A stretch of DNA of 58,479 nucleotides from a virus. Position 1 is the first letter of the stretch, and the number at the start of each line of letters is the position of its first letter. The stretch covers positions 1 through 58,479 of the IMG/VR virus record IMGVR_UViG_3300005829_000002, one strand, 5' to 3'. Below the pieces are notes generated by a model. The model saw only the letters and a list, made by a program, of their open reading frames with translations. It was not told the DNA's origin and made no database searches. The position numbers and the translations under genes were made by a program. This document shows, one piece after another, positions 1 through 58,479 of the stretch.

Positions 1-120
1 CGCCCGATCAGATCACTTTCCTCAATGACGTAAAGAAAACCGGTGGTGAGGCTTATATCGCCTGTCAGGTGGGGAATCAGGTGGAGTTGAAGGAGTGGAA
101 GGTACAATAATTTAAAACTA
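1..120. repeat. Terminal direct repeat, left copy (identical to 58360..58479)
   Basis: I compared both ends base by base. cgcccgatcagatcactttcc...ggtacaataatttaaaacta occurs at both ends. It carries the last 36 codons plus stop (to nt 110) of the VRR-NUC gene. Confidence 0.95.
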
Positions 121-4647: not shown

Positions 4648-5208
4648 TTGGATATGGGCGCGCCAAAGGGAAATGAGTTTTGGAAACTGAGATCAAAGCA
4701 TGGTCGGGATAAATTATTTGAGACACCTGAACTACTTTGGGAAGCTGCCTGCGAATATTTTCAATGGTGCGAAGATAATCCATTGATGTCGGCTGAACAA
4801 GCCAGGAGCGCTGGCAAACCAATAAAGGACAAAGACGGAAAAGATGTATTCCCTGATCCAATTATTGAGATTCCGAAGATGAGAGCCTTTACAATTCAGG
4901 GACTTTGCCTATACCTAGATGTTAACACGGTGTATTTCAATCAGTTCGAGAAAGCGGTATGTGATAAAAGCGATGAAATATCAAAAGATTTTTCACAAAT
5001 CTGCTCCCGCATCCGCGATGTAATATACCAGCAGAAGTTCACAGGAGCCGCGGCAGGCTTCTTAAATCACAACATAATAGCCAGGGAGCTCGGCCTTGCA
5101 GACAAGTCAGAATTAGTCGGTAAGGGCGACAGCGACCTATTCAAGGACAAAACCGACGACGACCTAAAAGCAATGCTAAAAGAAATATCATCTAAGCTGG
5201 ATGAGTAA
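4648..5208 (+). CDS. terS: terminase small subunit (gp3-type DNA-packaging protein)
   Basis: N-terminus GAPKGNEFWKLRSKHGRDKLFETPELLWEAACEYFQWC resembles the GP3_package family. Sits directly upstream of, and overlaps, the large terminase gene. Confidence 0.7.
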   Translation: MDMGAPKGNEFWKLRSKHGRDKLFETPELLWEAACEYFQWCEDNPLMSAEQARSAGKPIKDKDGKDVFPDPIIEIPKMRAFTIQGLCLYLDVNTVYFNQFEKAVCDKSDEISKDFSQICSRIRDVIYQQKFTGAAAGFLNHNIIARELGLADKSELVGKGDSDLFKDKTDDDLKAMLKEISSKLDE

Positions 5209-6598
5209 CGAGCGTGATCAAATCATCGCTGCGATAAAGGCGGCCAATGAGCTTTTGTTAAGACAATCCAGAACTGATTTTAAAAGGTATGTCAAGTACC
5301 TTAAAGCTGATTACGACATGCAATGGTTCCATGCATATATCTGTGATCGGCTTAACGCATTTGCCAAGGGCGAGGTAACAAAGCTGATGATACTTATGCC
5401 GCCTCAGCATGGTAAATCCGAACTTGCCACAAGGCTATTCCCTTCCTTCCTACTCGGTATTAACCCGGACTTAAAGATTGCGATTACTAGTTACTCAGAT
5501 AGCATAGTATCGGGATTCAATCGGGCGGTACAACGTAATATCGACAATGAAGCATATGGTAACTTATTCCCGGATACTCAGCTTAATCATAGCAAAATAT
5601 TCAGTACTTCATTCTCAAACTTTACAAGAACAGATCATAAATTTGAAATAATCGGCCATAAGGGTTCTCTAAAATCAGTTGGTCGCGGTGGCTCGCTAAC
5701 CTCAGAGCCTGTTGATATCGGAATTATTGATGATCTATATAAGGACCGTGAAGAAGCCAAATCAATGGTAGTAAGTGAAAGCGCCTGGAACTGGTATGTC
5801 GACGTATTCAGGACCAGGTTGCACAACGATAGCCAGCAGCTTATTATGAATACCAGGTGGGATGAGAATGATCTATGCGGGAGACTGTTGGTTGAGGAGC
5901 CAGGCGAGTGGGAGGTAATAAAGTTCCCTGCAATCAGGACCGAAGATATTAACGATTTTGATATAAGACAACCTGGAGACGCGCTCTGGCCGGGCAAGCA
6001 TAGTCTCGAAAAGATACTGAGTCAAAAGAAACTAAGCCAGGTAAGCTACAATAGCCTTTATCAGCAAGATCCTAAGCCTAACACTGATATATTAATCTTC
6101 AGTAATTGGGTGTCTATTCCGGCATTGCCCAGCACTATAGATGCAGTTACATGGGGTCTTGACTTTGGAAAGACAACCGGGACCAATGCCCTTGTCAAGT
6201 CGGGCCTGGTCAATGATAATGTATACTTCAAAGAGTGCCTTTATGCTCCTGGCGTGCCCATGTCTGAGATCAAAAATATACTAGTTTCCAATGGATATAA
6301 AGAAGGACAAATTGTTTATTGCGACCATATGCCTGGTAAGATTGCGGAGCTGCGAACACTCGGGGTATCAGCATTCCCCGCATTAAAAGGCGATGGCAGT
6401 ATTGATGCCGGGATAACCAAGCTGAAAGAATATACTTGTCACTATACTTCCGATTCCGTCAACCTCAAGATGGAGCTTAATAACTACCAATGGGTATGTT
6501 ATGGTAAGATCATCACCAACGTTCCGGTGGACGAGTTCAATCACTTACTTGACGCATGCCGGTACGCTGTATACAGTCGTTATTTCCGCGGAAGATAA
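5201..6598 (+). CDS. terL: terminase large subunit
   Basis: Walker A-like MPPQHGKSE and Walker B-like IGIIDDLYKD. Has a C-terminal nuclease-like half. 465 aa, in the expected position. Confidence 0.85.
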   Translation: MSNERDQIIAAIKAANELLLRQSRTDFKRYVKYLKADYDMQWFHAYICDRLNAFAKGEVTKLMILMPPQHGKSELATRLFPSFLLGINPDLKIAITSYSDSIVSGFNRAVQRNIDNEAYGNLFPDTQLNHSKIFSTSFSNFTRTDHKFEIIGHKGSLKSVGRGGSLTSEPVDIGIIDDLYKDREEAKSMVVSESAWNWYVDVFRTRLHNDSQQLIMNTRWDENDLCGRLLVEEPGEWEVIKFPAIRTEDINDFDIRQPGDALWPGKHSLEKILSQKKLSQVSYNSLYQQDPKPNTDILIFSNWVSIPALPSTIDAVTWGLDFGKTTGTNALVKSGLVNDNVYFKECLYAPGVPMSEIKNILVSNGYKEGQIVYCDHMPGKIAELRTLGVSAFPALKGDGSIDAGITKLKEYTCHYTSDSVNLKMELNNYQWVCYGKIITNVPVDEFNHLLDACRYAVYSRYFRGR

Positions 6599-6655: not shown

Positions 6656-6835
6656 ATGAAAAAGATCGTAGCACTAGCAATATTTATTATCTTCATAACC
6701 TCTTGTAAAAAAGAAAGTTATTCATGTTACGTATGTACTCATCCATCGTATAGCACAAAGGAAATTTGCAATACTACTCAAGGTGAGGTTGATCGGTGGA
6801 TGCAAACTTCTGGTTATACATGCACAAGGAAATAA
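6656..6835 (+). CDS. small Cys-rich lipoprotein (59 aa, below the ORF-track cutoff)
   Basis: My translation: MKKIVALAIFIIFITSCKKESYSCYVCTHPSYSTKEICNTTQGEVDRWMQTSGYTCTRK. It has a signal peptide, an ITSC lipobox and five further Cys residues. Confidence 0.5.
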   Translation: MKKIVALAIFIIFITSCKKESYSCYVCTHPSYSTKEICNTTQGEVDRWMQTSGYTCTRK

Positions 6836-6875: not shown

Positions 6876-6926
6876 AGCTACCCCGACGTACACAAGGGTT
6901 AGCTGAGTACGTTGGCTTTGGCTAAC
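6876..6926 (+). promoter_or_regulatory. Three copies of an AGCTAAC-type element able to form mutually exclusive hairpins
   Basis: AGCTACCC (6876-6883) can pair with GGGTTAGCT (6896-6904). Alternatively, GTTAGC (6898-6903) can pair with GCTAAC (6921-6926). Confidence 0.35.
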
Positions 6927-6932
6927 GAAATA

Positions 6933-6973
6933 GGGCGTGAAAGTCTAACCACTTTGGCGCCCTTATTTATTTT
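6933..6973 (+). terminator. intrinsic terminator upstream of the glycosyltransferase operon
   Basis: GGGCG-tg-AAAGT ctaacc ACTTT-gg-CGCCC, followed by TTATTTATTTT. Confidence 0.6.
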
Positions 6974-7093
6974 ATGCGAAACAAAGTAGCGAAAAGATTG
7001 CGCAAGGAAGCGAATGCCGAAACGGTAGGCCAATCTAAAAAGGTAACCAGGAAGCTATATCAGCAAAAGAAACGGGAATATAAGGCGAAATGA
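6974..7093 (+). CDS. possible 39-aa highly basic leader peptide
   Basis: MRNKVAKRLRKEANAETVGQSKKVTRKLYQQKKREYKAK. Its stop overlaps the ATG of the first glycosyltransferase gene (ATGA). It may be non-coding. Confidence 0.25.
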   Translation: MRNKVAKRLRKEANAETVGQSKKVTRKLYQQKKREYKAK

Positions 7094-7794
7094 CCGACAT
7101 CATTATCCCCCTCAACAATCGCTCCACTCAAAAGAATATTGAGTTAAAGTACTGCCTGCGTAGTGTCGAGAAACACCTATCCGGTGTAGGAAACATTTTC
7201 ATCATCGGCCATTGTCCTGACTGGGTTCAAAACGTTATACACATTCCGGCAGAAGAAGATCCGCGCAACCGCTTCAGGGATCGCAATATCATGAACAAGA
7301 TGGTGATTGCCTGCAAGGATGAACGCGTGAGTGACGACTTCCTGATGGTGCACGATGACCATTTTCTGTTGGCTGACTATGAGGCTGAATCGTTCCCTTA
7401 TTATCAATGCGGTGACTTGGTACCCAATGAAGGGCAATACGCCGTAACGAAAAGGAATACAATATCCCTGTTGGCCCTGGAAGAACCGCTAAAGAACTAT
7501 GACTGCCATTGCCCGATCTTGTTTAACAAAGAACGATTCCTGCGGTCGGCCGCCTTGGCCGATTGGTCGAAGTGGTACGGCTACTGTCTGAAGACTTTGT
7601 ACTGCATCATGAATGGGATCGAGGGTGAGCGCATGGAAGATATCAAAATCCGCATGCCATTAAAGACCGATGAAATTAATTCGATGATTACCGACCGATC
7701 ATGGTTCAGTATTGGTGATCGGTGCTGGACTGAAGGCGGGATGAAAGAAGTATTGCAAAGGTTATATCCAAATAAATCACGCTATGAGCGATAA
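7090..7794 (+). CDS. putative glycosyl/hexose-phosphate transferase (Stealth CR2-like)
   Basis: IELKYCLRSVEKH...IFIIGHCPDWV...FLMVHDDHFLL resembles the Stealth-family CR2 block (ELRYSLRS ... NDD). Recalled pattern only. Confidence 0.45.
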   Translation: MTDIIIPLNNRSTQKNIELKYCLRSVEKHLSGVGNIFIIGHCPDWVQNVIHIPAEEDPRNRFRDRNIMNKMVIACKDERVSDDFLMVHDDHFLLADYEAESFPYYQCGDLVPNEGQYAVTKRNTISLLALEEPLKNYDCHCPILFNKERFLRSAALADWSKWYGYCLKTLYCIMNGIEGERMEDIKIRMPLKTDEINSMITDRSWFSIGDRCWTEGGMKEVLQRLYPNKSRYER

Positions 7795-8029
7795 AAGGAA
7801 GATGCCAAACATACACACATCGAAAGATGTAACGATGCCTGTAAGTAAAAACGATGAGCCAGGATTGCCGGTGAAGATACCGCTGTCAATAGTTAGGTGG
7901 GTAGCTTACTCAACCGCCTTTTGGGTTTTACTAACGCCATTCCTTTTTCCAAAAATATGGCAACATATATGCGGGGGATTGATATTAGGGTGGTTCGCCA
8001 GTCAATTAAATGCGTTAATTAAAAAGTAA
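7784..8029 (+). CDS. small membrane protein (2 predicted TM segments)
   Basis: Hydrophobic stretches VAYSTAFWVLLTPFLF and ICGGLILGWFASQL. It is the only membrane protein in the operon. Confidence 0.45.
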   Translation: MSDKRKMPNIHTSKDVTMPVSKNDEPGLPVKIPLSIVRWVAYSTAFWVLLTPFLFPKIWQHICGGLILGWFASQLNALIKK

Positions 8030-8033
8030 CCCA

Positions 8034-8690
8034 ATGACCATTTGTTACTCATTCGCAAGTAGATCAAGGCCGCAAAGGTTCTTCGACACGCTCGACAACA
8101 TCATTGCCATGAGCGCCAGCAATGATTATTTCATTGTGGCGAAACTTGATGATGATGACATGACGATGAACGACTCGCTTATCAAAGAGCGGTTGTTAAG
8201 CTATCCGATGGTGATCGTGAAATGGGGGATGAGCACGAGTAAGATCTATGCTATTAACCGGGACCTGGATAATCTGCCGCCTTGGGATATTATGGTTTGC
8301 GCGAGCGACGATATGAGGTTTCGTACCATTGGCTTCGACAACATCATCAGGCAGTATATGCCCGCTGATCTCGACGGCTACGTGCACCTTATGGATGATT
8401 ATGCTAAGGATCGCGTTTGCACGGTTGACATAAAGGGAAGAAAGTACTTCGAAAGGCGCGGGAGAAAGATATACGTCGGGGATTATTTTTCCATGTGGTG
8501 CGATGATGAAGAAACGGAAGTAGCAAAGATTCTTGGTGTATACATATTAGTTCCGGATATCCACCTCGAACACCTACACTACACAAACGAACGCAAGGCC
8601 GTGAAAGATGAGCTCTACTGGCGCAATGATACGTATAACAAGGACAAAGTAATTTTTGAACAGCGTAAAGCGAGAGGGTTTGACTTATGA
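8034..8690 (+). CDS. GT-A-like glycosyltransferase (DxD)
   Basis: N-terminal beta-strand ICYSFASRSRP, then AKLDDDD and CASDDMRF acidic motifs. Confidence 0.45.
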   Translation: MTICYSFASRSRPQRFFDTLDNIIAMSASNDYFIVAKLDDDDMTMNDSLIKERLLSYPMVIVKWGMSTSKIYAINRDLDNLPPWDIMVCASDDMRFRTIGFDNIIRQYMPADLDGYVHLMDDYAKDRVCTVDIKGRKYFERRGRKIYVGDYFSMWCDDEETEVAKILGVYILVPDIHLEHLHYTNERKAVKDELYWRNDTYNKDKVIFEQRKARGFDL

Positions 8691-9253
8691 TAAAAGACGC
8701 ATTAACCATACTCATTCCAACATTGCCAGCCAGAAAGCATTTTCTGGAAAGATTAGAGGCCACTCTTGTATATCAAATCCTTGATAATAACGCATGCGTG
8801 CGACTTCATACAGACGATGATACATCGATCGACATAGGCACGAAGCGCAATAAGATGATGGCTGAAGTCTCTAGTGAATATATGGCCTTCTTTGACGATG
8901 ACGACATGCCGGGGCCGAATTATATCAAACACCTGATGGATGGGATATCCAAAGGCGTTGACTGTTGTTCGCTTACCGGCATTATTACCACCGATGGACG
9001 GAACCCGAAGAAGTTTATTCATTCGATTGAGTATAAGGAAATGTTTGAACGGGATAGCATTTATTATCGTCCTGTGATGCATATCAATTGTTTGAAGACA
9101 GAGCACGCCCGCAAAGTCGCATTCCCCGAGTGGCGTTTCAGCGAGGATTCGAAGTGGGCAATGGATCTGATGAACCTGGGTGTGTTAAATACCGAACACC
9201 GAATCGATGAGGTGATCTATAACTATTTATTTGTGAGCGATAAAAATTATTAA
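8687..9253 (+). CDS. family-2 glycosyltransferase
   Basis: LTILIPTLPARKHFL ... GTKRNKMMAEVSSEYMAFFDDDDMPGPNYI is the classic GT2 layout. ATGA overlap upstream. Confidence 0.7.
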   Translation: MIKDALTILIPTLPARKHFLERLEATLVYQILDNNACVRLHTDDDTSIDIGTKRNKMMAEVSSEYMAFFDDDDMPGPNYIKHLMDGISKGVDCCSLTGIITTDGRNPKKFIHSIEYKEMFERDSIYYRPVMHINCLKTEHARKVAFPEWRFSEDSKWAMDLMNLGVLNTEHRIDEVIYNYLFVSDKNY

Positions 9254-9254
9254 C

Positions 9255-9524
9255 ATGTTGCCTGTAACATTTGAACAGCAGAATAAGATATACACTAAGC
9301 CTGAAGGCTGGACCGATGAACAGTGTAGCGATTTGTCAGTTTGGCAAGGGCAAACGCCAATTGATGATCATGGCAACATGTCGCCTTCTATTATCTCTTG
9401 CTGGAAGCTATCTAAGGAAGATATTGAGGAAATTAAGCGTACAGGGGTTATATGGCTGTGCATTAGTAGCGATGGCATGCCGCCAGTTTCATTGTTCACC
9501 GAAAATCCGTTTACCAATGGCTAA
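9255..9524 (+). CDS. hypothetical protein
   Basis: 89-aa ORF. Its end overlaps the next start by 8 nt. Confidence 0.4.
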   Translation: MLPVTFEQQNKIYTKPEGWTDEQCSDLSVWQGQTPIDDHGNMSPSIISCWKLSKEDIEEIKRTGVIWLCISSDGMPPVSLFTENPFTNG

Positions 9525-10368
9525 TGCGATTTCATATTCGTTATTTGGTTACAATCAAATGCATGAACAGTGCGCGGATTTCAGATCCTACCTCCGTGGT
9601 CTGCACCTTAACATTCGTATAGCTGAGTTGCTTTACCCTGGGTGGGATGTTCGGGTAATGGTAGATCAGTCAGTAGTGCAAAGCCCTTACTTTCAATACT
9701 TCTGTAATCTTAATAATGAGGGGAAGATATTATTATGCAACATGAGCACATGGGACTTATGCCGAATGATGCTATACCGCCTGTACCCCTTGTTCTTTGA
9801 TGAAGGCGATAAACCAATGTACGACCGCATTATTTGCCGAGACACCGACAGTCTACTGTCTTACCGGGAACGTCAAGCTGTTGCATATTGGGAACGCGGT
9901 CCAAAGATGGCTCACGCTATAACTGATTCGATTTCTCATTCAGTAACCTTAATGGGCGGCATGATCGGCTTCAAGTCCGGGCCATTCCGCAACCGCATGA
10001 ATGCACTGTCATTGGATACCTTATTTGCTACGGCCGAAGGTATCGACTTCACAAAGAAGGGTGCCGACCAAGACTTTCTGAACCGGTACGTGCTCCCAAA
10101 AGTTGCCGATAGCATTACTGAGCATTTCGTTCTGGGACATCCTCAGACCTTCAGAGGCGATTGCCACAATTTCATACATGATATTGACCTAAAAGAAATC
10201 GGGGTGCCTGATGAGCTTAAGGAGACGAACGGATACGGGTTTCACATCGGGGCGAGCGGCATGCAAACAGACGCAGTTGTAAAATTCTTAACCAAATATG
10301 GGAAAGACAATGAATACTGGGAGGAATTGGAGAAACAATATCCGGAGACTTTTTACTGGGTCATGTAA
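9517..10368 (+). CDS. putative nucleotide-sugar glycosyltransferase (DxD)
   Basis: Starts MANAISYSLFGY. Has a candidate ICRDTDS DxD motif. The 9271 N-terminal extension looks like junk. Confidence 0.4.
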   Translation: MANAISYSLFGYNQMHEQCADFRSYLRGLHLNIRIAELLYPGWDVRVMVDQSVVQSPYFQYFCNLNNEGKILLCNMSTWDLCRMMLYRLYPLFFDEGDKPMYDRIICRDTDSLLSYRERQAVAYWERGPKMAHAITDSISHSVTLMGGMIGFKSGPFRNRMNALSLDTLFATAEGIDFTKKGADQDFLNRYVLPKVADSITEHFVLGHPQTFRGDCHNFIHDIDLKEIGVPDELKETNGYGFHIGASGMQTDAVVKFLTKYGKDNEYWEELEKQYPETFYWVM

Positions 10369-10378
10369 ATTATAAATC

Positions 10379-10723
10379 ATGGGAGTAGACAGAAGCGACT
10401 ATATGATCTATGGGTACAAGCTGCCTAAAGATTATTTCGTATCTAAGGGCATTGAGATATTTGAGGGTAATAAGTATCTGCCGTACATAGAAGGCTGGAA
10501 GGGCGAAAACTATTCAATAGTCGACGACCAGATGTGCGGTAAGTATTGTGTATTCGGCTACTCAATTGCCTATGCAAGCAGCAACGGCTTTGACTTTATC
10601 GAACTGCCGGGAGAATGGCCGGTCAATAGCGAACAGGTTAAGGCAAAGTTTAAGGATGTATTTGGATTTGCCGATGAATCATTAGGGGAACCCAAGTTAT
10701 TATTATTCACTCACTATTGGTAA
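10379..10723 (+). CDS. hypothetical protein
   Basis: 114-aa ORF inside the operon. Confidence 0.5.
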   Translation: MGVDRSDYMIYGYKLPKDYFVSKGIEIFEGNKYLPYIEGWKGENYSIVDDQMCGKYCVFGYSIAYASSNGFDFIELPGEWPVNSEQVKAKFKDVFGFADESLGEPKLLLFTHYW

Positions 10724-10728
10724 ATAAC

Positions 10729-11373
10729 ATGACCGACTTCATCTTTCTTTCCGTCGCCTTTGGCGAGCGATATATAGAGCAGCAAACGAGGCTGCATAGT
10801 TCATTGCAGGCAATTCATCCAGAGGCCAGACATTTGGCATGGACCGATAGATACCCGCCTTACGCAAAGCCCCATAAAGAAAGCCTTTATGGCTTCAAGG
10901 TTCATGCTATTAATGAAGCTATAAGACACGGCTATAAAAAGATCATCTGGCTTGATACGGCATGCATCCTTCAGCAGCCGGTTGATTACTGGTTCGACCT
11001 TGTAAAAGATTATGGGGTATTGGCGGCAAGGGACGACAATAAGCTGACGAACTGCTTCGCTACAAATAAGCTGATGTGGTATAGCCTGGTCGGCATACCC
11101 GAGTATATGCATCTTGTCGGTGGTAGTGCATATATATTTGATTTTGATTTGCCATTATGTGAGAAGATATTTAAGAACTGGGAAGGCGCGGAACGGGGTA
11201 TGGCGTTCGGTAGCCAACAGGAGCAAGCAAGTGGCAAGATAAACGGTCACCGCCACGATGAAAGCTGCATGGCCATGGCGCTGTACCTGAACGATAGCGA
11301 GCCGGTGCCATATGATGTGATGAAGTATAACCAGGGGGAAGGATCGATCATTATTAAAAAGCACTTCAAATGA
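10729..11373 (+). CDS. putative nucleotide-diphospho-sugar transferase
   Basis: FIFLSVAFGERYIEQ ... LYGFKVHAI ... KIIWLDTACIL is a GT8/GT-A-like layout. ATG at 10729 (the track start at 10717 is TTG). Confidence 0.4.
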   Translation: MTDFIFLSVAFGERYIEQQTRLHSSLQAIHPEARHLAWTDRYPPYAKPHKESLYGFKVHAINEAIRHGYKKIIWLDTACILQQPVDYWFDLVKDYGVLAARDDNKLTNCFATNKLMWYSLVGIPEYMHLVGGSAYIFDFDLPLCEKIFKNWEGAERGMAFGSQQEQASGKINGHRHDESCMAMALYLNDSEPVPYDVMKYNQGEGSIIIKKHFK

Positions 11374-11942
11374 ACATCCAAACAATACACGAACACAGCA
11401 TTGACCTCGATCTGCTTACCGGTGGTGTCTGCATTGATGCGGGTTGCCGGGGCTTTCAGTTCAGTGAGGCGATGAGAGATTTGGGGTGTAAGGTGATTGC
11501 TTTCGACCTGGAAGACATGAAGGCGCCGGAGGGCATTTGTTTTTATAAATCCGCTATTACAACAAGGAACGGGCTTGTTCATTATGTTGATACAAAGGAT
11601 CAGCAGGCAAAACATTTAGCTGATCTGGGTATAGCGGTTGATGCGGTTTGTTTAAATAATGTCTATGAAATGAATGGACTTTATTCTGTTGATGTTTTAA
11701 AATTAGACATCGAGGGATCAGAATACGAAGTCCTTTCCGACCCCAACTTTCAGCCCATCCCAAAACAAATAAGCGTAGAGTTCCATATGCACGCGCACCT
11801 GCAACTGCACGACCAGTACTACGACAAATGCATGGAGAACCTGTTGAAGTGGTACGAACCGGTGCAACATGAGTTGACGCAGGCGCATGGGGCGGGATGG
11901 AATTACTGGAATTCGTTATTTATTCGAAAAGATTTGTTATGA
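11370..11942 (+). CDS. FkbM-family SAM-dependent methyltransferase
   Basis: CIDAGCRGFQFS (motif I) and VDVLKLDIEGSEYEVL, the hallmark of Methyltransf_21. Confidence 0.8.
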   Translation: MNIQTIHEHSIDLDLLTGGVCIDAGCRGFQFSEAMRDLGCKVIAFDLEDMKAPEGICFYKSAITTRNGLVHYVDTKDQQAKHLADLGIAVDAVCLNNVYEMNGLYSVDVLKLDIEGSEYEVLSDPNFQPIPKQISVEFHMHAHLQLHDQYYDKCMENLLKWYEPVQHELTQAHGAGWNYWNSLFIRKDLL

Positions 11943-12166
11943 TAGCATTGTTTACATATTTCAGAAGCGACCCAGATACTAAAATAAAAGTATTTCCTCA
12001 TTTATGGGCTGCCCGGGTGGTTGTATTACAAGTATATCGCCCAAAAAGAATATTATTTTTTAGAATATGGAAATGCGTTGATTCTATTGGAATAGATTGG
12101 CCGCCATGCAGAAGCGATTTAGATAAAGAAGTTTCAACGTTATTCATAAAAAATAGTCAATCATGA
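11939..12166 (+). CDS. hypothetical small protein
   Basis: ATGA overlaps at both ends suggest translational coupling. No motif recognised. Confidence 0.3.
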   Translation: MIALFTYFRSDPDTKIKVFPHLWAARVVVLQVYRPKRILFFRIWKCVDSIGIDWPPCRSDLDKEVSTLFIKNSQS

Positions 12167-12906
12167 ATAAAGTTTGCATATTGTCAGTGGACAACAACCC
12201 TGACTACTATTCTCTCCTTCCCCTCGTTTGCCATAGCTGGCGAAAGATTGGGTATGAAACAATTGTAATCGCAGTTGATGTTCCTGAACCGGTATACGAA
12301 ACGCTTCACCTTCATTGCAGAGGCTTCTTTCTGCCGACAAAACCTATCGAAGGCGTAAAGAACTCCACCATTGCGCAGCTGTTACGACTATTCGCATATG
12401 AGCATTTCCAGCCTGATGATATCCTAATCACCGGCGACGCCGACATGATCATCGCATCCGACATCTTCACCCACGACGTAAGCCAGGGGCAAATAGTTTC
12501 ATACGGTTACGACCTCACGGGCCGGTCAGAGCTGCCGATCTGTTACGTGAAGGCTACAGCGGCCAAATGGCGCGAATTGATGGGCGAGTTCACCATACCC
12601 AAGAAAGCCTACTCCGAACGGTGGGAAGATTACTGGTCGGTGGATCAGCAGTTGTTAACCCAGCGCGCGCGCGCATACGGCATGGGTAAGATAACGTTTG
12701 TTGACCGGGGCAACCAGAACAAGCACGGGTTGCCTACGGGCAGATGGGACAGACACGATTTTTTGCACGTACCGGATTCGATAATTGATGTGCATGTGCC
12801 CCGGAATAACTGGGAAGCGCAGGCAGAAGTAGCCGAAAGGCTTTGGCCAGGCGAAGATCATTCTTTCATCACTAAATTCAGGGAGGCGTTATGTCAGGAG
12901 AAATAA
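12163..12906 (+). CDS. putative glycosyltransferase (DxD)
   Basis: KVCILSVDNNPDYY ... ILITGDADMI. Weak GT-A-like signature. Confidence 0.35.
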   Translation: MNKVCILSVDNNPDYYSLLPLVCHSWRKIGYETIVIAVDVPEPVYETLHLHCRGFFLPTKPIEGVKNSTIAQLLRLFAYEHFQPDDILITGDADMIIASDIFTHDVSQGQIVSYGYDLTGRSELPICYVKATAAKWRELMGEFTIPKKAYSERWEDYWSVDQQLLTQRARAYGMGKITFVDRGNQNKHGLPTGRWDRHDFLHVPDSIIDVHVPRNNWEAQAEVAERLWPGEDHSFITKFREALCQEK

Positions 12907-13469
12907 ATGATCCATACGGAATTGAATTTAAGCGTGTTAATCTGAAAGACGAATGTCTATTTCTGGAAAATATAAACAACTGGTGTAATCATCGCCCATT
13001 GCTTTTATTGGCGCTACATCTTACCGCCGGAGACGTTTGCGAGTTCGGTGCCGGTGACGGAAGCACGCCATATCTACGCGAGTATTGCAGGGTTAACGAC
13101 CGACATTTTCAATCATGGGAAAACAATATTGAATGGTCGAATAAATGCGCTGTGGGATTTGTTGATAACTGGGATACGGCCGACATATGGCACCCATGCG
13201 GACTGGCGTTTATTGACCACGCACCAGGTGAACACCGTAAGGTTGCAGTCGAGCGCATGATGGACAGGGCGCAAATTATATGCGTGCATGATACCGAGAT
13301 TGGCGGCGCTGGTGACTATGGATTCGAGCCGGTATTCGCTAGGTTTAAGTTTCGCCTAAACTACAACCGTACCGGCGGCGGGGCGGGCGCAACCCTGGTG
13401 AGCAATTCTATTGATGTAAACTGGTTCCGGGGGTTATCTTTGGGGCCTTATACTTTTGATAATGATTAA
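12891..13469 (+). CDS. class I SAM-dependent methyltransferase-like
   Basis: VCEFGAGDGSTPYL (motif I), AFIDHAP, ICVHDTE. Confidence 0.5.
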   Translation: MSGEINDPYGIEFKRVNLKDECLFLENINNWCNHRPLLLLALHLTAGDVCEFGAGDGSTPYLREYCRVNDRHFQSWENNIEWSNKCAVGFVDNWDTADIWHPCGLAFIDHAPGEHRKVAVERMMDRAQIICVHDTEIGGAGDYGFEPVFARFKFRLNYNRTGGGAGATLVSNSIDVNWFRGLSLGPYTFDND

Positions 13470-13490
13470 AGTGCTTCAAATCAAACTACC

Positions 13491-14111
13491 ATGATCAACC
13501 TCAATCATTGTAACGAATGGCAGCACAGGTGCCCGGAAACAGGCCTTGTCTTTCCCTGGTATACCAAATCCTTTCTCGATGTGCTGGCCACCTGGGAGCT
13601 ATCTGATAAGAAGGTATGCGAGTACGGCGGTGGCGCTTCAACTGTTTGGTGGAATAAAAAAGCAAAGCACGTATTCACCGTAGAAAGCAGTGAAGCATAT
13701 TTCGATGCACTTATTAAGCACATCGGCCACGAGTCCTTAATGATGGTCACGGCCGATAAAGACAAGTACATTAATTGGGCTTATGGGCCGCATGGCGGAC
13801 CTTTTGATATAATTATCATCGACGGGGAACCCATCTCCTGGCGTGACGATTGCGTAAAGCCCGCCCTTGATTGCCTAAAGCCCGGCGGCCGCTTAATATT
13901 TGACAATTGGCTACAACCATCGGTTGAGTGGATGCCGAGCGAGGAAACGCAGCGGACATTATCACAATACCCGGTTCAGGTGTACGCGCAAGAGGGTCAC
14001 CCGGATTGGAAAACGGCGGTATTTACGAAAGTAAATGAAATTGCAGACATTAAAATAACAGAAGTATCCCTGCTTCAAAATGGACAATATGGAATCGGAT
14101 ATTCTTATTAA
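13491..14111 (+). CDS. class I SAM-dependent methyltransferase
   Basis: VCEYGGGASTVWW, FDIIIIDGE, LKPGGRLIFDNW. Confidence 0.6.
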   Translation: MINLNHCNEWQHRCPETGLVFPWYTKSFLDVLATWELSDKKVCEYGGGASTVWWNKKAKHVFTVESSEAYFDALIKHIGHESLMMVTADKDKYINWAYGPHGGPFDIIIIDGEPISWRDDCVKPALDCLKPGGRLIFDNWLQPSVEWMPSEETQRTLSQYPVQVYAQEGHPDWKTAVFTKVNEIADIKITEVSLLQNGQYGIGYSY

Positions 14112-14712
14112 CATTTTAATTCGCACCAGCTACCGCCCGGCCCAATTCGCCCGGTGCCTGGGATCGGTAAAGGGGCAGACGTATAAAAATGTACGGGTAA
14201 TTGTAGGGCTTGATGACATAGGGGCATTGCATTATATCCCGAAAGACATTGAGTCATGGAACGTTTCAAACGAAAGCGATTGCCCGTATTTTTACGACCA
14301 ATACTGCAACACCTTAAAATTGAAAGCTGCAATTGGCTGGTTCTTCTTCCTTGACGACGACGACACACTGGCCAGCCCAACCGTCCTGCAGCAACTTTCT
14401 GAACACCTCACCGGCCCTCACGAGGCCATCATCTGCCAGATGCTGCGTAATGGCGTACCGAAACCGGCCGACAACTACATGCGAAATAAAGTAATATGGG
14501 AAGGCAAGATCGGGTTGCCATGCCTGGTGCTGCACTCAAAACACAAGGCACTATCAGGCCTGGATGGCCAGAAAGCCGGGGATTACCGGTACATCAAAGA
14601 AGTAACCGACCAGGTAAACACCAAATTCATCACCCTGCCATTGGTCAATGCCGGTACCCGTAGTCACGGCAAAATGGAGGCAACTAGCCATATTTCAAAT
14701 ATTTCAGAATAA
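14080..14712 (+). CDS. family-2 glycosyltransferase
   Basis: INILIRTSYRPAQFARCLGSVKGQTYKNVRVIVGLDD ... FFFLDDDDTL. Confidence 0.7.
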   Translation: MDNMESDILINILIRTSYRPAQFARCLGSVKGQTYKNVRVIVGLDDIGALHYIPKDIESWNVSNESDCPYFYDQYCNTLKLKAAIGWFFFLDDDDTLASPTVLQQLSEHLTGPHEAIICQMLRNGVPKPADNYMRNKVIWEGKIGLPCLVLHSKHKALSGLDGQKAGDYRYIKEVTDQVNTKFITLPLVNAGTRSHGKMEATSHISNISE

Positions 14713-14740
14713 ATTGAAAATATATTTCTAATTTCGTACT

Positions 14741-14938
14741 ATGCAGGAAATTAGGTGCAGTAGTCCTAAGTGCAACAAAGTGGTTGGAAAACTTGAGTTC
14801 GGCAAAGCCGAGTTCAAGTGTAAGTACTGCAGCACCTACACGACTGCAGAGATATTGCCGACACAGGCGGCACCTGAACAAGACATACAACAAGCGACCC
14901 AGTGGCCCGAACGGGCAAGAGCATTTGTAGGGAGATAG
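14741..14938 (+). CDS. Com-like zinc-ribbon protein
   Basis: MQEIRCSSPKCNKVVGKLEFGKAEFKCKYCST parallels Mu Com (MKSIRCKNCNKLLFKA...IEIRCPRCK). Confidence 0.55.
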   Translation: MQEIRCSSPKCNKVVGKLEFGKAEFKCKYCSTYTTAEILPTQAAPEQDIQQATQWPERARAFVGR

Positions 14939-14980
14939 GTAGAGGTTAACGCTTAATCCAAAAATACTAGCGCCCCAAGA

Positions 14981-15022
14981 GGGCCAGCATTCAGCAATGG
15001 ATGACTGGCCCTTTTTCTTTTT
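14981..15022 (+). terminator. intrinsic terminator closing the glycosyltransferase/Com operon
   Basis: GGGCCAG (14981-87), 17-nt loop, CTGGCCC (15005-11), then TTTTTCTTTTT. Confidence 0.7.
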
Positions 15023-16603
15023 ATGGAGGTACAACGACTATTATCAGCAGGAAAGGATTTGATCAAAGGCGACTTTAATGGTGCCTTAAAGTCGTTGTCA
15101 CCTTACTCGCAAGACCTAATACCTTCGTCCTATCGGCCATCGATCGGCGGCCTTGACAATATCCTATTCGAAGCCAACGGCAAATCAATATTCCACTTTC
15201 AATACTCCGGCCATAACAGCTCGCAAAAGGCATACGAGAAGTGCCCGCCGGTAAACGCCATCATCAACAAAAAAGCTCAGGCATATATCAACGGGAAAAC
15301 CTGGGTGCTAAATAAGCAAGGCAAGGCAAAAGGTAAAGAATCCACGAGCGCTGAAGCAAAGAAGCTACAGGCCCTATTCAAAAAGCCTAATCCATTACAA
15401 TCATGGAAACAATTTGAAGCGCAGGGTTATATCTACCAGCAATTGTTCGGGTATACGATTGTATTGCCTATTAAGCCGGTAGGGTTTAAAGAGAATATTG
15501 ACGCATCCGCGCTATGGAATATTCCCCCTTCCATGGTGGATATAGAAGAAACAAACAAGCTTTTTTATCAGACCGACACAAAGGGCATCCTGAAACAGAT
15601 CGTGCTTAATTACAAGGGCACGAGAACCATACTGAACGTTGAGGATATATATATTCTTAAGGATTTCACGCCTTCTTTCTGCAGCCTCATTATTCCTGAC
15701 AGTCGTATACGTGCGCTTGAACTTCCTATCAATAATATAGTTGGAGCATACGAAAGCCGTAATGTGCTGATCAATTATCGGGGCGCGCTTGGTATCCTTT
15801 CGCAAGATCCGGGCAGCGGCGCTTATGGTGCTATTCCAATGACGCCAGGTCAAAAGGAGGAACTACAACAAGAGTTTCGCCGATATGGTTTATCAAATCA
15901 CCAATGGCAGTTTATCATAACATCCGCTTCCCTGAAATGGCAGCAGATGGGTATATCTACTAAAGACCTTATGCTGTTTGAGGAAATAGAGGCCGATACG
16001 ATGGCTATCTGCGATTCTTACGGTTATCCATATCAGTTAATGAGTTCGGCAAAGGGGACAACTTTCAGCAATCTCAATGAAGGAAAGAAGTTGCTGTACC
16101 AAGATGCGACTATGCCGGAAGCAGAGAGCATGTATGAGCAATGGAATCAAATGTTCAATACAGAGGCATACGGAATAGTAATAGATAAAGATTATAGCCA
16201 CGTAGCGGTATTGCAGGAAGATAAGGCACAAGCTGCGCAGGCCCGACTGACACTTAATGAAGCGCTGACAATAGAATTTCAGAATGGGTTAATAACGCTT
16301 GATGATTGGCTGGAAAAGTTGGGTGAAGACCCTTTGCCAAATGGTCAAGGCCAGGTACGCGCTACCGATCCGAAATCATCAAATGTTCCACTCGCGGTAA
16401 TGATTGGCGTTGGTGGCGTGCAAGGTTTGATTGCCGTCATAACCGCACAAGGGATGAGTGAAGAAGCGAGACAGGCTACTCTTGAAGTAGTGTTTGGATT
16501 GGCGCCTGGCGATGCGCAAAGAATGTCAATAAGTTCACAACAAACTAATACCAATGAAACCGGACAACAACAGCAAGGGCAACAAGGACAAGCAGCGGCC
16601 TAA
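15023..16603 (+). CDS. portal protein
   Basis: 526 aa, first gene of the head module ahead of protease and capsid. Gln/Gly-rich C-tail. The true start may be further downstream, because 15023 abuts the terminator T-tract. Confidence 0.7.
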   Translation: MEVQRLLSAGKDLIKGDFNGALKSLSPYSQDLIPSSYRPSIGGLDNILFEANGKSIFHFQYSGHNSSQKAYEKCPPVNAIINKKAQAYINGKTWVLNKQGKAKGKESTSAEAKKLQALFKKPNPLQSWKQFEAQGYIYQQLFGYTIVLPIKPVGFKENIDASALWNIPPSMVDIEETNKLFYQTDTKGILKQIVLNYKGTRTILNVEDIYILKDFTPSFCSLIIPDSRIRALELPINNIVGAYESRNVLINYRGALGILSQDPGSGAYGAIPMTPGQKEELQQEFRRYGLSNHQWQFIITSASLKWQQMGISTKDLMLFEEIEADTMAICDSYGYPYQLMSSAKGTTFSNLNEGKKLLYQDATMPEAESMYEQWNQMFNTEAYGIVIDKDYSHVAVLQEDKAQAAQARLTLNEALTIEFQNGLITLDDWLEKLGEDPLPNGQGQVRATDPKSSNVPLAVMIGVGGVQGLIAVITAQGMSEEARQATLEVVFGLAPGDAQRMSISSQQTNTNETGQQQQGQQGQAAA

Positions 16604-16678
16604 AGTGCCAAAAAAGGTACTTGAAAAAAAACTGCTTGAAAAAGAAAAGCAAGTTGCTGATAAAAAAATAATCAAGAA

Positions 16679-17530
16679 ATGAAAAGCATCATACCACATA
16701 ACCTAACTGGTAAATCATTATATGACTATCTGGTCAAGAATGAAGGGCTGATATTTCACACTAAGAAGAGCACGCTGAAGAAAGCTGATGAAATATTCTC
16801 CATGCCTATGTATGTGGATGACAAAGGCAATCTTGTTTCAAAGGCAGAAGTTGTACAACAACAGATTGACCCTAATAAGCTAAAAGTAGCTCTTGTAATT
16901 AATACCACAAATTGGTATGATAGTCATGGCGATGTGCATATACCGGGTATTTGGAAGAAAACCTTATCAGATAATAAAGCAATTGGATTTTATCTTCTCG
17001 ATAATCATGGCCGTGATTTCGAGGATGTAATTACCGAAGGATGCAAAGGATATACTAAAAAAATGCCCTGGAGTGATCTAGGTATTGATGTGCAGGGTAT
17101 AACAGAGGCATTGATATTCGATGGCATAATCGATAAAGATCGAAATGAATATATGTTCGATCAATACCGAAAAGGATACGTGAAGAAGCACAGCGTGGGC
17201 ATGCGTTACATGAAAATGCTCACCTGCATCAATGACGACAATTACCCGGTTCAAAAAGAAAACTGGGATAAATATATCCAGGCTGTAGCTAACCGTGATG
17301 AAGCTGAAGCGGATGGTTATTTCTGGGCAATATTGGAAGCTCAAATAATTGAGGGTAGCGCAGTACTATTTGCGAGCAATCCCATTACTCCAACTATGGA
17401 GGCGACACTAATTCAAGGCAAAACTGATTCAGAAGAAGACACTAACTATCAGCCGCCATCGGGCACTGAGAAAAAGCCGTCATCATTCGATCTGGATCTT
17501 GCGATAAAACAAGTAAAAATTATTGTTTAA
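16679..17530 (+). CDS. prohead protease (HK97/S78-like)
   Basis: NTTNWYDSHGDVHIPGIWKKTL resembles the S78 N-terminal motif. Lies between portal and capsid. Confidence 0.65.
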   Translation: MKSIIPHNLTGKSLYDYLVKNEGLIFHTKKSTLKKADEIFSMPMYVDDKGNLVSKAEVVQQQIDPNKLKVALVINTTNWYDSHGDVHIPGIWKKTLSDNKAIGFYLLDNHGRDFEDVITEGCKGYTKKMPWSDLGIDVQGITEALIFDGIIDKDRNEYMFDQYRKGYVKKHSVGMRYMKMLTCINDDNYPVQKENWDKYIQAVANRDEAEADGYFWAILEAQIIEGSAVLFASNPITPTMEATLIQGKTDSEEDTNYQPPSGTEKKPSSFDLDLAIKQVKIIV

Positions 17531-17548
17531 CTCAAAACAGAGTTCACA

Positions 17549-18811
17549 ATGTTAACAGAACAACAATTTACCGAGCTAACCGCTAAGGTTGGCAACGAGG
17601 CGGCGACTAAAATAAAAGAACAGTTTGCGGCTTCGGAAAAAAGCATCAACGACAAGATCGATGATGTAAAAAAAGGCCTGATGACCTCGAAAGATTTCGA
17701 CACTTTCAAGGCCGAAGAACTTGCAAAAGTTACCGAAAAACTTACGAGCGTTGAAAGTATTCTTAAAGAACAGGGTACGGTCATCAATGCGCTGAAAGAA
17801 ACAGGTAATCCTGCAAAGCCTAAAACGCTGGCAGATGTGCTGGCTGATAAAGAAGTGCTGGCTGAAATCAAAGCCGTTCAGAAATCAGGCCAGGGTAATG
17901 TCGAAATACCATTGGATGGCATTACGCTAAAGACAGCCGGAAGTACATCTATTGGTAATAGTATTCAGCCGATGACGCCGCCGCCTAACAGCCCCTATCT
18001 GCCCGCTGCTGCTCCTTTGGATGCCAGCAATTTCTTCGGCATCATGTACAATCCGAATTTCATTATCAACTATGTTAACAGAGGAAGCACCAACTTCAGC
18101 ATGTTACCATGGGTGAACGAAACATCGGTCGAAGGTGCAGCCGCTGCAGTGCAGGAAGGTGCGCAGAAGCCCCTGTGGAATACCCGGTTTAAAGTTGAGA
18201 TGTCAACCGCAAAGAAGATTGCGGCCATGTCTACCATCACTGAGGAATTCGATCAGGATCTGCCCGGCTTCACGACCATCGTTCAGCGATTGCTTACAGA
18301 AGAAGTAGCGCGCAAATGGGATGATGCAATTTATACGGCAGTAATCGCAGTTGCCAAGCTATACAATATCACCGGGCTGAATGGCAAGGTTGATGATGCA
18401 AACTTATATGATGCCCTTCGTGCGGCCATTGCGCAAATCGGCAAATACAATTTCAATGCAAATTTCATCGGCGTAAATCCTGTTACCGGCGCATTGATTG
18501 AAATGCAGAAATCAGCCACCGATCGCCTTTACCTGGTGCCTCCTTTCATTCAGAGGCTTCAGAGCATGATGCGTGAAGGGAATAAGGTGGCAGAAGGCTA
18601 TGCGCTGGTAGGTGATATCAACCAGTATAATGTCGATACCTACAAGAACATGGTTCTGAAAGTTGGTTACAATAGCGATGATTTCCGTCGTAACCAGTTC
18701 AGCGTAATCGCCGAGGTTCGTTACCACGACTATATCAGCGATAACCGCAAGGATGCATTGCTGTACGATCAACTGGATCGCATTGTATCACTTATCGATT
18801 CTGGTTCATAA
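17549..18811 (+). CDS. major capsid protein (HK97 fold)
   Basis: 420 aa with an N-terminal coiled-coil delta-like domain (MLTEQQFTELTAKVGNEAATKIKEQ). Follows the protease. Confidence 0.8.
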   Translation: MLTEQQFTELTAKVGNEAATKIKEQFAASEKSINDKIDDVKKGLMTSKDFDTFKAEELAKVTEKLTSVESILKEQGTVINALKETGNPAKPKTLADVLADKEVLAEIKAVQKSGQGNVEIPLDGITLKTAGSTSIGNSIQPMTPPPNSPYLPAAAPLDASNFFGIMYNPNFIINYVNRGSTNFSMLPWVNETSVEGAAAAVQEGAQKPLWNTRFKVEMSTAKKIAAMSTITEEFDQDLPGFTTIVQRLLTEEVARKWDDAIYTAVIAVAKLYNITGLNGKVDDANLYDALRAAIAQIGKYNFNANFIGVNPVTGALIEMQKSATDRLYLVPPFIQRLQSMMREGNKVAEGYALVGDINQYNVDTYKNMVLKVGYNSDDFRRNQFSVIAEVRYHDYISDNRKDALLYDQLDRIVSLIDSGS

Positions 18812-19635: not shown

Positions 19636-19637
19636 CT

Positions 19638-20159: not shown

Positions 20160-20176
20160 CTTTTTAATTCATAACA

Positions 20177-58469: not shown

Positions 58470-58479
58470 TTTAAAACTA
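58360..58479. repeat. Terminal direct repeat, right copy (identical to 1..120)
   Basis: Base-by-base comparison. Confidence 0.95.

Follow-up and report, generated by a model that had tools for sequence, protein, structure and literature searches.

What use would a phage have for about ten sugar- and methyl-transferring enzymes encoded between its terminase and its portal? The question is raised by a gene cassette at positions 7090-14938 (+ strand, between terL and portal) of IMG/VR virus record IMGVR_UViG_3300005829_000002, which was analysed over its full 58,479 nucleotides (positions 1 to 58,479, hereafter the window). The cassette fills 13.4% of the window, in line with the ~13% given in a first-pass annotation made from the sequence alone. 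Our comparisons indicate a conserved set of predicted glycosyl-, phosphoglycosyl- and methyltransferases that is under purifying selection and is linked to packaging and head genes across phage lineages. It would build a methylated oligosaccharide, probably with a phosphodiester, from host nucleotide sugars. As to the acceptor, that the cassette would glycosylate virion proteins is the reading we favour, with confidence a little short of even.

The cassette contains 15 called open reading frames (ORFs), named c01-c15 in order along the window:

7090-7794, + strand: c01, predicted mini-Stealth sugar-1-phosphate transferase (Pfam Stealth_CR2)
7784-8029, + strand: c02, 81 amino acids (aa), two moderately hydrophobic stretches
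8034-8690, + strand: c03, probable GT-A glycosyltransferase (phrog_14945 'glycosyltransferase', E 1.1e-6)
8687-9253, + strand: c04, GT2 glycosyltransferase (Pfam Glycos_transf_2, 26.2 bits, cut-off 23.3; phrog_14775, E 8e-38)
9255-9524, + strand: c05, 89 aa (phrog_25433, unknown function, E 2e-8)
9517-10368, + strand: c06, predicted GT-A fold, GT8/GT24-like, retaining type (AlphaFold2 and Foldseek)
10379-10723, + strand: c07, 114 aa, variably present
10729-11373, + strand: c08, signature protein of the core module, weak GT8 hints
11370-11942, + strand: c09, FkbM S-adenosylmethionine (SAM) methyltransferase (Pfam Methyltransf_21, PF05050, 32.6 bits, cut-off 22.7)
11897-12166, + strand: c10, mechanical ORF, present as an ORF call only
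12163-12906, + strand: c11, predicted GT-A fold, GT8-like retaining glycosyltransferase (AlphaFold2 and Foldseek)
12891-13469, + strand: c12, class-I SAM methyltransferase-like, paralogue of c13 (hhalign)
13491-14111, + strand: c13, class-I SAM methyltransferase-like (Methyltransf_24 E 0.002 and Methyltransf_23 E 0.006, both below gathering score)
14080-14712, + strand: c14, GT2-like with a DDDD motif (Pfam Glycos_transf_2, 20.7 bits, below the cut-off of 23.3)
14741-14938, + strand: c15, Zn-ribbon of 65 aa (CxxC...CxxC)

Neighbouring ORFs overlap by 4-32 nt or are separated by gaps of 1-28 nt, the sole exception being c10, which lies 46 nt over c09. The coordinates and common strand of the fifteen packed ORFs described in the first-pass annotation are correct, but c10 is probably no gene. 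That annotation also overlooked a conserved 39-aa ORF at 6974-7093 and the small hydrophobic character of c02. Relatives were sought by a portal-based scan of IMG/VR, which found 17, and fetched loci are referred to by L-numbers.

By our tally, the cassette encodes a single predicted phosphosugar transferase, glycosyltransferases of which four are well supported and two weaker, and three proteins of methyltransferase type. Counted together, about six sugar transferases are credible and a seventh is weak, a result close to the count in the first-pass annotation. Scans of Pfam, NCBIfam and PHROG gave weak signals because the cassette proteins are highly divergent; curated Pfam cut-offs were passed by c04 and c09 only, and all 15 proteins joined as a single query found nothing among PDB sequences. 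Profiles were more informative for c01, which the first-pass annotation had likened to Stealth CR2. The protein itself matches Pfam Stealth_CR2 with E 1.8e-7 (31.7 bits, under the gathering score of 39.4), and an exhaustive HMMER search recovered a family of 3,229 representative clusters, mainly stand-alone proteins of ~235 aa. Stealth_CR2 is matched by 115/116 profile members (best E 1e-12), with D89 and D90 nearly invariant, and the profile of these 116 members matches the catalytic domain of GlcNAc-1-phosphotransferase (GNPTAB; E 2.9e-14) and CpsY (E 2.4e-7). Its alignment to GNPTAB covers positions 14-160, past CR2. Stealth_CR4 is matched by 6/116 members, and the C-terminal YPxKSKYE is similar to GNPTAB FPLPSQFE in a segment below significance. 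Because of the profile matches to GNPTAB and CpsY and the presence of CR2 in 115/116 members, c01 is assigned to Stealth and predicted to act as a minimal sugar-1-phosphate transferase. The c01 domain is also fused to glycosyltransferase domains in metagenomic proteins P0283 and P0365. The domain orders seen in fusion proteins joining c01 are c01+GT2+GT (708 aa) and GT11+GT+c01 (784 aa).

The glycosyltransferases are supported to different degrees. Of the two ORFs put forward as clear GT2 enzymes, c04 stands above the curated cut-off and has PglI, TuaG and HpsE as its weak best NCBIfam matches, whereas c14 falls below it (20.7 versus 23.3 bits); orthologues of c14 in L021 and L022 bear weak or faint PF00535 marks, and hhalign of c04 against c14 gives 38%. 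Among the four ORFs for which weaker glycosyltransferase signatures had been proposed, c06 and c11 gained GT-A folds from AlphaFold2 and Foldseek and c03 a PHROG glycosyltransferase match, but the signal for c08 stayed weak. The model of c06 (pLDDT 80.5, pTM 0.84; alignment of 62 homologues) resembles the catalytic domain of UGGT, glycogenin and K4CP in the PDB (best E 5e-5, TM ~0.4), and its DxD residues D109 and D111 are invariant in the 62 sequences. For c11 (pLDDT 92, pTM 0.90; alignment of 68 homologues, with DxD residues D92 and D94 invariant in the 68 sequences), LgtC is the top PDB match, alongside GT8, GlyE, Skp1 AgtA and glycogenin (E 1.5e-7, probability 1.0, TM 0.5-0.57), and matches in BFVD are to glycosyltransferases of giant viruses, for the most part, and of cyanophages. 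Both models suggest GT-A folds nearest the GT8/GT24 retaining enzymes; neither protein has a Pfam GT8 match, and the CAZy family is not established. The two families comprise 464 (c06) and 143 (c11) clusters at the 90% level, every one annotated 'hypothetical', and their members lie on contigs of up to ~55-65 kb, the group being common in metagenomes.

c03 is a probable GT-A type glycosyltransferase. Its family keeps S91-D92-D93 and H180/H182 invariant (SDD and HxH motifs), and metagenomic proteins P0001-P0007 include c03-c03 tandem fusions (~455 aa) and one c03-c04 fusion, which came to light in a homologue search with c01, c03 and c06 joined as one query that gave seven multi-domain proteins only; c03 has no Pfam or PDB-sequence match. 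c08, with homologues at 18 IMG/VR and 65 metagenome loci, is possibly GT8-like: it has no Pfam or PHROG match itself, one of 14 family members matches Glyco_transf_8 weakly (E 0.009), and the top PDB match of the family profile is, weakly, the Skp1 alpha-galactosyltransferase AgtA (E 0.37). PDB searches with the family profiles of c03, c08 and c12 gave no significant match, and hhalign comparisons among the cassette families linked only c12 with c13 and, weakly, c04 with c14, leaving c03 and c08 without a tie to the clear glycosyltransferases.

Three proteins are of methyltransferase type. The FkbM methyltransferase expected at 11370 is confirmed, c09 lying above the Pfam cut-off for Methyltransf_21 and slightly under that of TIGR01444 (35.3 bits against 37.7). 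The two class I methyltransferases expected at 12891 and 13491 are upheld in part: c12 and c13 appear to be paralogous class-I methyltransferase-like proteins (hhalign 92.8%, E 4e-7 over 123 columns), and c12 has an invariant GxGxG-containing motif, E51-x-G53-x-G55-x-G57, but the Pfam matches stay below the gathering score, with some c12 family members matching Methyltransf_23, _17 and _24 weakly.

These assignments suggest a soluble (cytoplasmic or membrane-peripheral) glycan assembly line that would be co-transcribed with head and packaging genes. GT-A enzymes would add sugars singly from host nucleotide sugars, c04 and c14 as inverting GT2-type enzymes, c06, c11 and possibly c08 as retaining GT8-type enzymes, and c03 among the sugar-adding enzymes as well. 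c01 would add a sugar-1-phosphate, giving a phosphodiester link, and c09 together with the paralogues c12 and c13 would O-methylate sugars. The best candidate acceptors would be the major capsid and tail-tube subunits. We infer the reaction order, donor sugars, expression timing and acceptor alike.

What the cassette lacks bears on where such a glycan might go. No membrane-grade hydrophobic segment (19-residue windows, Kyte-Doolittle mean >1.6) was found in the cassette enzymes, and among the Pfam matches of the cassette ORFs at E<=1 there is no family of polytopic transporters, phosphoglycosyl-transferases or sugar-nucleotide synthesis. The gaps listed in the first-pass annotation (polytopic membrane proteins, an initiating phosphotransferase and sugar-nucleotide synthesis) are borne out within the cassette by these two scans. 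They had been taken as an argument against O-antigen seroconversion, which holds as far as GtrA flippase, GtrC and Wzx/Wzy components go, none of which was found by the same two scans, but action on host lipid-linked intermediates stays compatible with them. The main alternative, which we consider less likely but which must be weighed throughout, is that a host envelope glycan is remodelled at the inner face of the membrane, on undecaprenyl-linked intermediates of the host (LPS O-antigen, capsule, exopolysaccharide or the general protein O-glycan of Bacteroidota). The remaining steps would fall to an initiating transferase, a flippase and a ligase of the host, and the altered surface would block superinfection of lysogens or, late in infection, keep progeny off debris. 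The enzyme families suit this: GT2, GT8 and FkbM are typical of O-antigen and capsule loci, the weak NCBIfam matches of c04 count in its favour, and characterised Stealth enzymes, among them the matched CpsY, act on glycans by phosphotransfer in capsule and exopolysaccharide. On the other hand, seven or more transferases are far above known seroconversion modules, and the two scans showed no flippase, polymerase or O-acetylase in the cassette.

A second destination would be the phage DNA, an oligosaccharide being placed on a modified base shortly before packaging to protect against nucleases. Some phages have GT-A and GT-B enzymes that decorate 5-hydroxymethylcytosine (5hmC) with mono- to trisaccharides, sometimes encoded next to terminase or structural genes (bioRxiv 10.1101/2023.12.21.572611). 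DNA as the acceptor would be present in every lineage with the module described below, and such a role would explain the position of the cassette beside the terminase in several of them. Known pathways, however, depend on a base that has been hydroxylated, either through a thymidylate-synthase homologue or through the pairing of a C5-methyltransferase with a TET-type dioxygenase, and no such route is recognisable in the genome by Pfam and PDB searches, in agreement with the first-pass annotation. Specifically, Pfam revealed no thymidylate-synthase homologue, TET/JBP protein or DNA methyltransferase (E<=1 in the cassette, E<=0.001 in 20 other ORFs), an absence that is not absolute since unmatched ORFs remain; PDB searches of three unassigned ORFs returned no base-making enzyme. 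Nor did the 20 non-cassette ORFs yield a DNA polymerase or sugar-nucleotide enzyme at Pfam E<=0.001, small and unmatched ORFs again remaining, and a phage in which no DNA polymerase or nucleotide-metabolism genes are detected is a poor candidate for base hypermodification. The three methyltransferases are of FkbM and Methyltransf_24 type and resemble enzymes for sugars or small molecules rather than DNA methyltransferases, and we know of no precedent for a Stealth phosphotransferase in DNA modification. We regard this explanation as very improbable.

The linkage of the cassette to packaging and head genes is best seen in relatives. Every relative whose sequence spans terL to portal carries it (L003, L004, L005, L008, L012, L013, L014, L018, L021, L022, L043 and L048), with c05, c07, c08, c09 and c13 present or absent depending on the relative. 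At a capsid identity of 77-95%, the cassette proteins share 45-80%. In L003, L004, L005 and L008, terL is only 36% identical to that of the window while portals (81-84%) and capsids (94-95%) are close and the cassette is retained, which indicates a swap of the terminase module adjoining a conserved cassette. In two more distant relatives, L016 and L019 (portals 55-66% identical), c01 is kept, together with c02 in L016 and c15 in L019, and other enzymes fill the slot, including for example a GT11 fucosyltransferase-like fusion. Genes for HNH/NUMOD4 homing endonucleases lie at different points within or at the edge of the cassette in L021 (6408-6962), L022 (10722-11294) and L043 (2494-3102), which gives it the look of a hotspot for such mobile genes. 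L022 (125.7 kb) was considered as an integrated prophage; at about twice the genome size it is probably a concatemeric assembly, and it was not used as host evidence.

The edges of the cassette bear on how it is expressed. Its immediate surroundings are as follows:

5201-6598, + strand: large terminase (terL), bordering the cassette on the left (Pfam Terminase_6N at 31.9 bits, over the cut-off, and Terminase_3C)
6656-6835, + strand: small lipoprotein-like ORF (signal peptide and Cys, lipobox ...ITSC; sequence begins MKKIVALAIFIIFITSC)
6883-6973, + strand: element of two hairpins bordering the cassette on its 5' side (hairpin 1 at ~6883-6916, hairpin 2 at ~6928-6968)
6974-7093, + strand: very basic 39-aa ORF (MRNKVAKRLRKEANAETVGQSKKVTRKLYQQKKREYKAK), stop overlapping the c01 start (ATGA)
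14978-15022, + strand: terminator-like hairpin with T-tract (-29.5 kcal/mol, z -4.2), abutting the portal ATG
15023-16603, + strand: portal, right flank of the cassette (Pfam Phage_portal, 70.8 bits)

Both intrinsic terminators that the first-pass annotation placed around the cassette are supported, with z-scores of -3.0 and -4.2, T-tracts and conservation in relatives. Upstream, hairpin 2 (~6928-6973) is terminator-like (-20.9 kcal/mol) and its T-tract continues into the ATG; across nine relatives, RNAalifold predicts 22 pairs in the whole element, seven of them with compensatory changes, and no Rfam family matches it. It could be a regulated terminator or an antiterminator site of the late operon. 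Downstream, the hairpin with its T-tract is kept in ten relatives, although the inner-stem sequences differ. Because the portal ATG abuts this T-tract, the portal would be transcribed only by read-through across the cassette, and the cassette would therefore belong to the late transcript, a point that speaks against a role in the host envelope. So does the lack of any promoter-like element in the stretch from the upstream terminator to c01. Two matches to the Bacteroidota -33/-7 promoter pattern (TTTG...TAnnTTTG) occur in the window, no more than expected by chance and neither near the cassette, and a sigma-70 promoter scan of the window stayed at background level. The order of hairpin, T-tract and ATG is shared by the 5' edge of the cassette and the portal start (14978-15025).

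Outside this phage group, further lineages of phages carry a core in conserved gene order (c03-c04-c06-c11-c08-c09-x-c12), its proteins being 25-45% identical. Where enough flank is available, most of these loci adjoin packaging or structural genes in the same orientation. The core lies downstream of a lambda GpA-type TerL in L034, L059 and L062, upstream of a 402-aa T4-type TerL in L037, L040, L064 and L065, and between a sigma-70-region-4 gene and terS in JGI 3300078620. The Stealth gene sits at the far end of the module in L043, and in L039 and L075 the core stands beside a UDP-glucose dehydrogenase gene. No recognisable bacterial polysaccharide locus surrounds the core in any of the contigs examined; this, and the position of most core loci beside terminase or structural genes, counts against envelope remodelling. 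We conclude from these comparisons that about seven genes form a mobile unit that seems common to several unrelated environmental phage lineages and absent from cultured phages; the enzyme module is found again in environmental phages numbering in the hundreds. In L059 and L062, the genes 3' of the cassette (13742-20600) encode proteins of ~504, 136, 138 and 630 aa. By gene order this series resembles a myovirus set of sheath, tube, chaperone and tape-measure genes; if that reading is true, the same enzyme module serves contractile-tailed phages too.

Synteny comparisons of the kind proposed in the first-pass annotation found the cassette in environmental relatives and its core in other lineages, none of them cultured. 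Against a set of 50,697 phage records, megablast of the cassette returned nothing and tblastn found no homologue of c03, c08, c11, c14 or c15, while c06 has distant matches in jumbo phages only. The cultured-phage homologues of c01 and c04 are all from actinobacteriophages. c04 matches 63 actinophage records at 30-35% identity (tblastn), and hhalign pairs it with LittleE gp15 (99.9%) and the N-domain of Che8 gp108 (99.7%) at 30-34% identity, so that by profile comparison c04 appears to be a true homologue in the same family as these two. Full-length homologues of c01 (~24% identity, annotated 'hypothetical protein') occur in Mycobacterium phage Fionnbharth (gp6; L023, 1273-1959) and in 41 other actinophage records. 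The Fionnbharth gene sits immediately upstream of terS, and homologues are carried by Cluster K and other actinophages; these proteins could be re-annotated as Stealth-like phosphosugar transferases.

The actinophage genes stand in similar positions. In Corndog, a methyltransferase (gp35) and glycosyltransferases (gp36-38) directly precede the major head gene; in LittleE, the stretch from capsid to connector genes (gp15-21 block) encodes a kinase along with four glycosyltransferases; and in Che8 three annotated glycosyltransferases (gp108-110) lie at the genome end, beside cos and the terminase. PMC12363180, citing Freeman et al. 2023, reports virion glycosylation for Che8, Corndog and Myrna and calls Che8 gp110 and Corndog gp38 essential for capsid glycosylation. 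PMC12619734, also citing Freeman et al. 2023, places the mycobacteriophage glycans at the C-termini of capsid and tail-tube subunits. These reports qualify the novelty that the first-pass annotation saw in a cassette of several glycosyltransferases and methyltransferases: its occurrence in a Bacteroidota lineage and its size are new, but the argument is weakened because blocks of such genes in structural regions are known from actinobacteriophages, with Corndog gp35-38 and LittleE gp15-21 as precedents.

The relevant structural and other landmark genes of the window are:

4648-5208: terS (Pfam GP3_package match)
17549-18811, + strand: HK97-type major capsid protein (phrog_10, major head protein)
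20177-21133, + strand: putative major tail protein (tail-tube), assigned by position only, between connector-size genes and chaperone/tape-measure genes
43598-44737: integrase (family match)

The major capsid protein ends in ...IDSGS, with the G/S tip kept in relatives down to 36% identity. The putative tail-tube protein, for which no family match was found, ends in ...ESASS, with a terminal Ser in every relative, down to 28% identity. Taken together, the tips persist at identities of 28-44%. As acceptor sites these Ser/Gly tips are weak candidates. The last 25 residues of the portal form a Q/N/T/G-rich tail (…SSQQTNTNETGQQQQGQQGQAAA) whose length and sequence vary across relatives, and portal residues 454-476 are strongly hydrophobic (Kyte-Doolittle mean 2.15).

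Virion proteins are favoured as acceptors because of the position of the mycobacteriophage genes and the homology link to them, because of the repeated association with terminase and structural genes, because the portal would be transcribed by read-through across the cassette, and because Ser/Gly tips are conserved on the capsid and putative tail-tube. Several observations weigh against them, and some of these suit envelope remodelling. The core-module lineages have no detectable portal or capsid similarity to the window, and no acceptor protein common to the cassette-bearing lineages was found, the fetched flanks sharing only the cassette genes and weak terL similarity. If the acceptor is shared, it would therefore have to be a tag of very small size or else a component present in every case, for example DNA or the lipid carrier of the host; a module moving among phages with unrelated structural proteins is easily explained by an acceptor that the host owns. 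The Ser/Gly tips are short, and a similar ending is found in 6/60 window proteins (10%). For neither Che8 gp110 nor Corndog gp38 did the cassette yield a homologue. The integrase marks a temperate phage, and the cassette is bracketed, as a moron would be, by conserved terminator-like hairpins that insulate it on both sides, with a probable lipoprotein moron adjoining. Inside it lies the small hydrophobic c02, conserved beside c01, which may anchor enzymes to the membrane. Finally, immediately upstream of the L020 portal (43% identical), genes for a methyltransferase and a c01 homologue lie on the strand opposite to it.

Glycosylation of virion proteins can be put more specifically, in a form that we find plausible but doubtful: a mobile 'virion glycosylation kit' with a core of about seven enzymes and lineage-specific additions, for instance a mini-Stealth phosphotransferase, which would place a methylated phosphodiester glycan on the Ser/Gly tips of capsid and tail-tube in several unrelated environmental lineages, the hosts being Bacteroidota for the present lineage at least.

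The fold neighbours of c11 and c06 raise a further alternative, since glycogenin, Skp1 AgtA, GlyE and UGGT glycosylate cytoplasmic or soluble proteins: the acceptor might be a host cytoplasmic protein or a non-structural phage protein, or the product a free or lipid-linked methylated oligosaccharide serving as decoy, signal or store. The fold matches, however, reflect the general GT8/GT24 fold, and the top match, LgtC, acts on lipooligosaccharide. Nothing nearby points to such an acceptor, and the linkage to packaging and structural genes would be left unexplained, so this explanation is improbable.

The remaining ORFs of the cassette and its edges add detail to this outline. c02 has homologues beside c01 in 19 loci and is a possible membrane hairpin, although neither of its stretches reaches a Kyte-Doolittle mean of 1.6 over 19 residues. 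c05 is not specific to the cassette, its homologue in L021 lying upstream of the terminase, and c07 has homologues in L014, L028 and L044 only and no family match. c10 is probably spurious because none of the ~110 related loci fetched contains a homologue. The ~220-nt spacer between c09 and c11 (11943-12162), covered only by c10, is peculiar to this genome; c09 and c11 abut in L012 and L013. c15 is invariably the last gene before the portal and is kept in 18 loci, including L019, whose enzymes between c01 and c15 differ. It had been described as a Com-like Zn-ribbon, and the CxxC...CxxC pattern is there, but Pfam at E<=1 returned no zf-Com match (the sole return being zf-AN1, E 0.2) and tblastn at E<=1 no match in the 50,697 phage records; it is possibly regulatory. 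The 39-aa ORF at 6974-7093 is 62-73% identical in L008, L014, L026 and L030 and absent from L013, L021 and L022. The lipoprotein-like ORF at 6656-6835, between terL and the upstream terminator, has homologues in L021 and L022 only and is absent from L013; it is probably a separate moron outside the glycan machinery, for example a superinfection-exclusion lipoprotein.

The phage itself can be described from its gene content. A 120-nt exact direct repeat at both ends (window 1-120 = 58360-58479) shows that the window is a complete circular assembly of a genome of ~58,359 bp. Its genes, which include an integrase, a tape-measure protein and a GH19 endolysin, identify it by sequence as a temperate siphovirus-type phage. 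tRNA genes and Rfam families were not found in the window. The closest cultured portal proteins are those of Polaribacter phages, 34% identical at best, and in the GTDB genome collection the portal family occurs exclusively on contigs binned with Bacteroidota metagenome-assembled genomes, one of them Chitinophagaceae. Tail proteins have beta-helix, PA14, PKD and BNR domains (Pfam), which suggests that the phage binds or degrades host surface polysaccharide; a glycan receptor of this kind would fit envelope remodelling. The large tail proteins in question combine a CEMIP-like beta-helix with PA14 and PKD domains (36927-39197) or contain a BNR/sialidase-like domain (30421-33792).

What is already known, from actinobacteriophages, is a block of glycosyltransferase and methyltransferase genes in the structural region that glycosylates virions. 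New here are the Bacteroidota host lineage, a cassette of about ten enzymes with a mini-Stealth phosphotransferase and three methyltransferases, and its mobile core of about seven genes. To our knowledge, glycosylated particles have been demonstrated among phages in a few mycobacteriophages only, and otherwise in giant viruses; in mycobacteriophages, the glycans shield particles from antibodies. If the cassette does act on virions, it would extend virion glycosylation for the first time beyond actinobacteriophages and giant viruses, with a far richer enzymology (about ten enzymes, with three methylations as well as a phosphosugar link), and glycan-coated phages would be common in soil, freshwater and compost, a widespread environmental trait. 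Such a coat would affect adsorption and survival of the particles and their contact with mucus, grazers and immune systems, and the cassette would offer protein glycoengineering a compact set of soluble tools encoded in one operon. If instead it acts on the host envelope, it would be a lysogenic-conversion module of unusual size and a new type. Either way, the families of c01, c03, c06, c08 and c11, 'hypothetical' in hundreds to thousands of metagenomic clusters, gain a testable functional context.

Comparison with known systems places the cassette near several of them. Within the Stealth family (GNPTAB, meningococcal CsaB/CsxA and M. tuberculosis CpsY), the c01 profile matches CpsY and, in GNPTAB, the catalytic core, and its C-terminal motif weakly resembles CR4; unlike these enzymes, c01 is minimal, phage-encoded and itself below the Pfam gathering score. 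The gtrABC modules of P22 and SfX are likewise glycosyltransferase genes in a terminator-insulated block of a temperate phage. They consist of one to three genes, with polytopic GtrA and GtrC, and usually lie beside the integrase or att site, whereas the window has about ten predicted soluble enzymes and no polytopic protein, in a packaging/head block. DNA hypermodification clusters (MT/5mYOX/GT or ThyS/GT; Pyle et al., Lee et al.) resemble the cassette in having phage GT-A enzymes, sometimes several and sometimes near the terminase, but 5mYOX, ThyS and a C5-methyltransferase went undetected in the window genome by the searches given above.

Two virion glycosylation systems are closer in kind. 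In the chlorovirus PBCV-1, soluble GT-A enzymes and sugar O-methyltransferases (A064R, A075L, A111/114R and others) equip the major capsid protein with a methylated oligosaccharide; this takes place in the cytoplasm and needs no ER or Golgi enzymes of the host. Most structural neighbours of c11 in BFVD are glycosyltransferases from giant viruses, a likeness in structure; PBCV-1 is a eukaryotic giant virus with N-linked glycans and with scattered genes rather than a single operon. The mycobacteriophage system differs in its hosts (Actinomycetota there, Bacteroidota here) and in size (3-5 enzymes against about ten); the Stealth phosphotransferase and three methyltransferases distinguish the cassette, and one or two enzyme families are shared. 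In both, soluble glycosyltransferase blocks, with a methyltransferase in Corndog, stand in or beside head and packaging genes of temperate or lytic siphophages, and where C-terminal glycans are reported in mycobacteriophages, the capsid and putative tail-tube end here in Ser/Gly tips. The relation is best described as one shared enzyme family together with a strong positional analogy, rather than membership of the same system.

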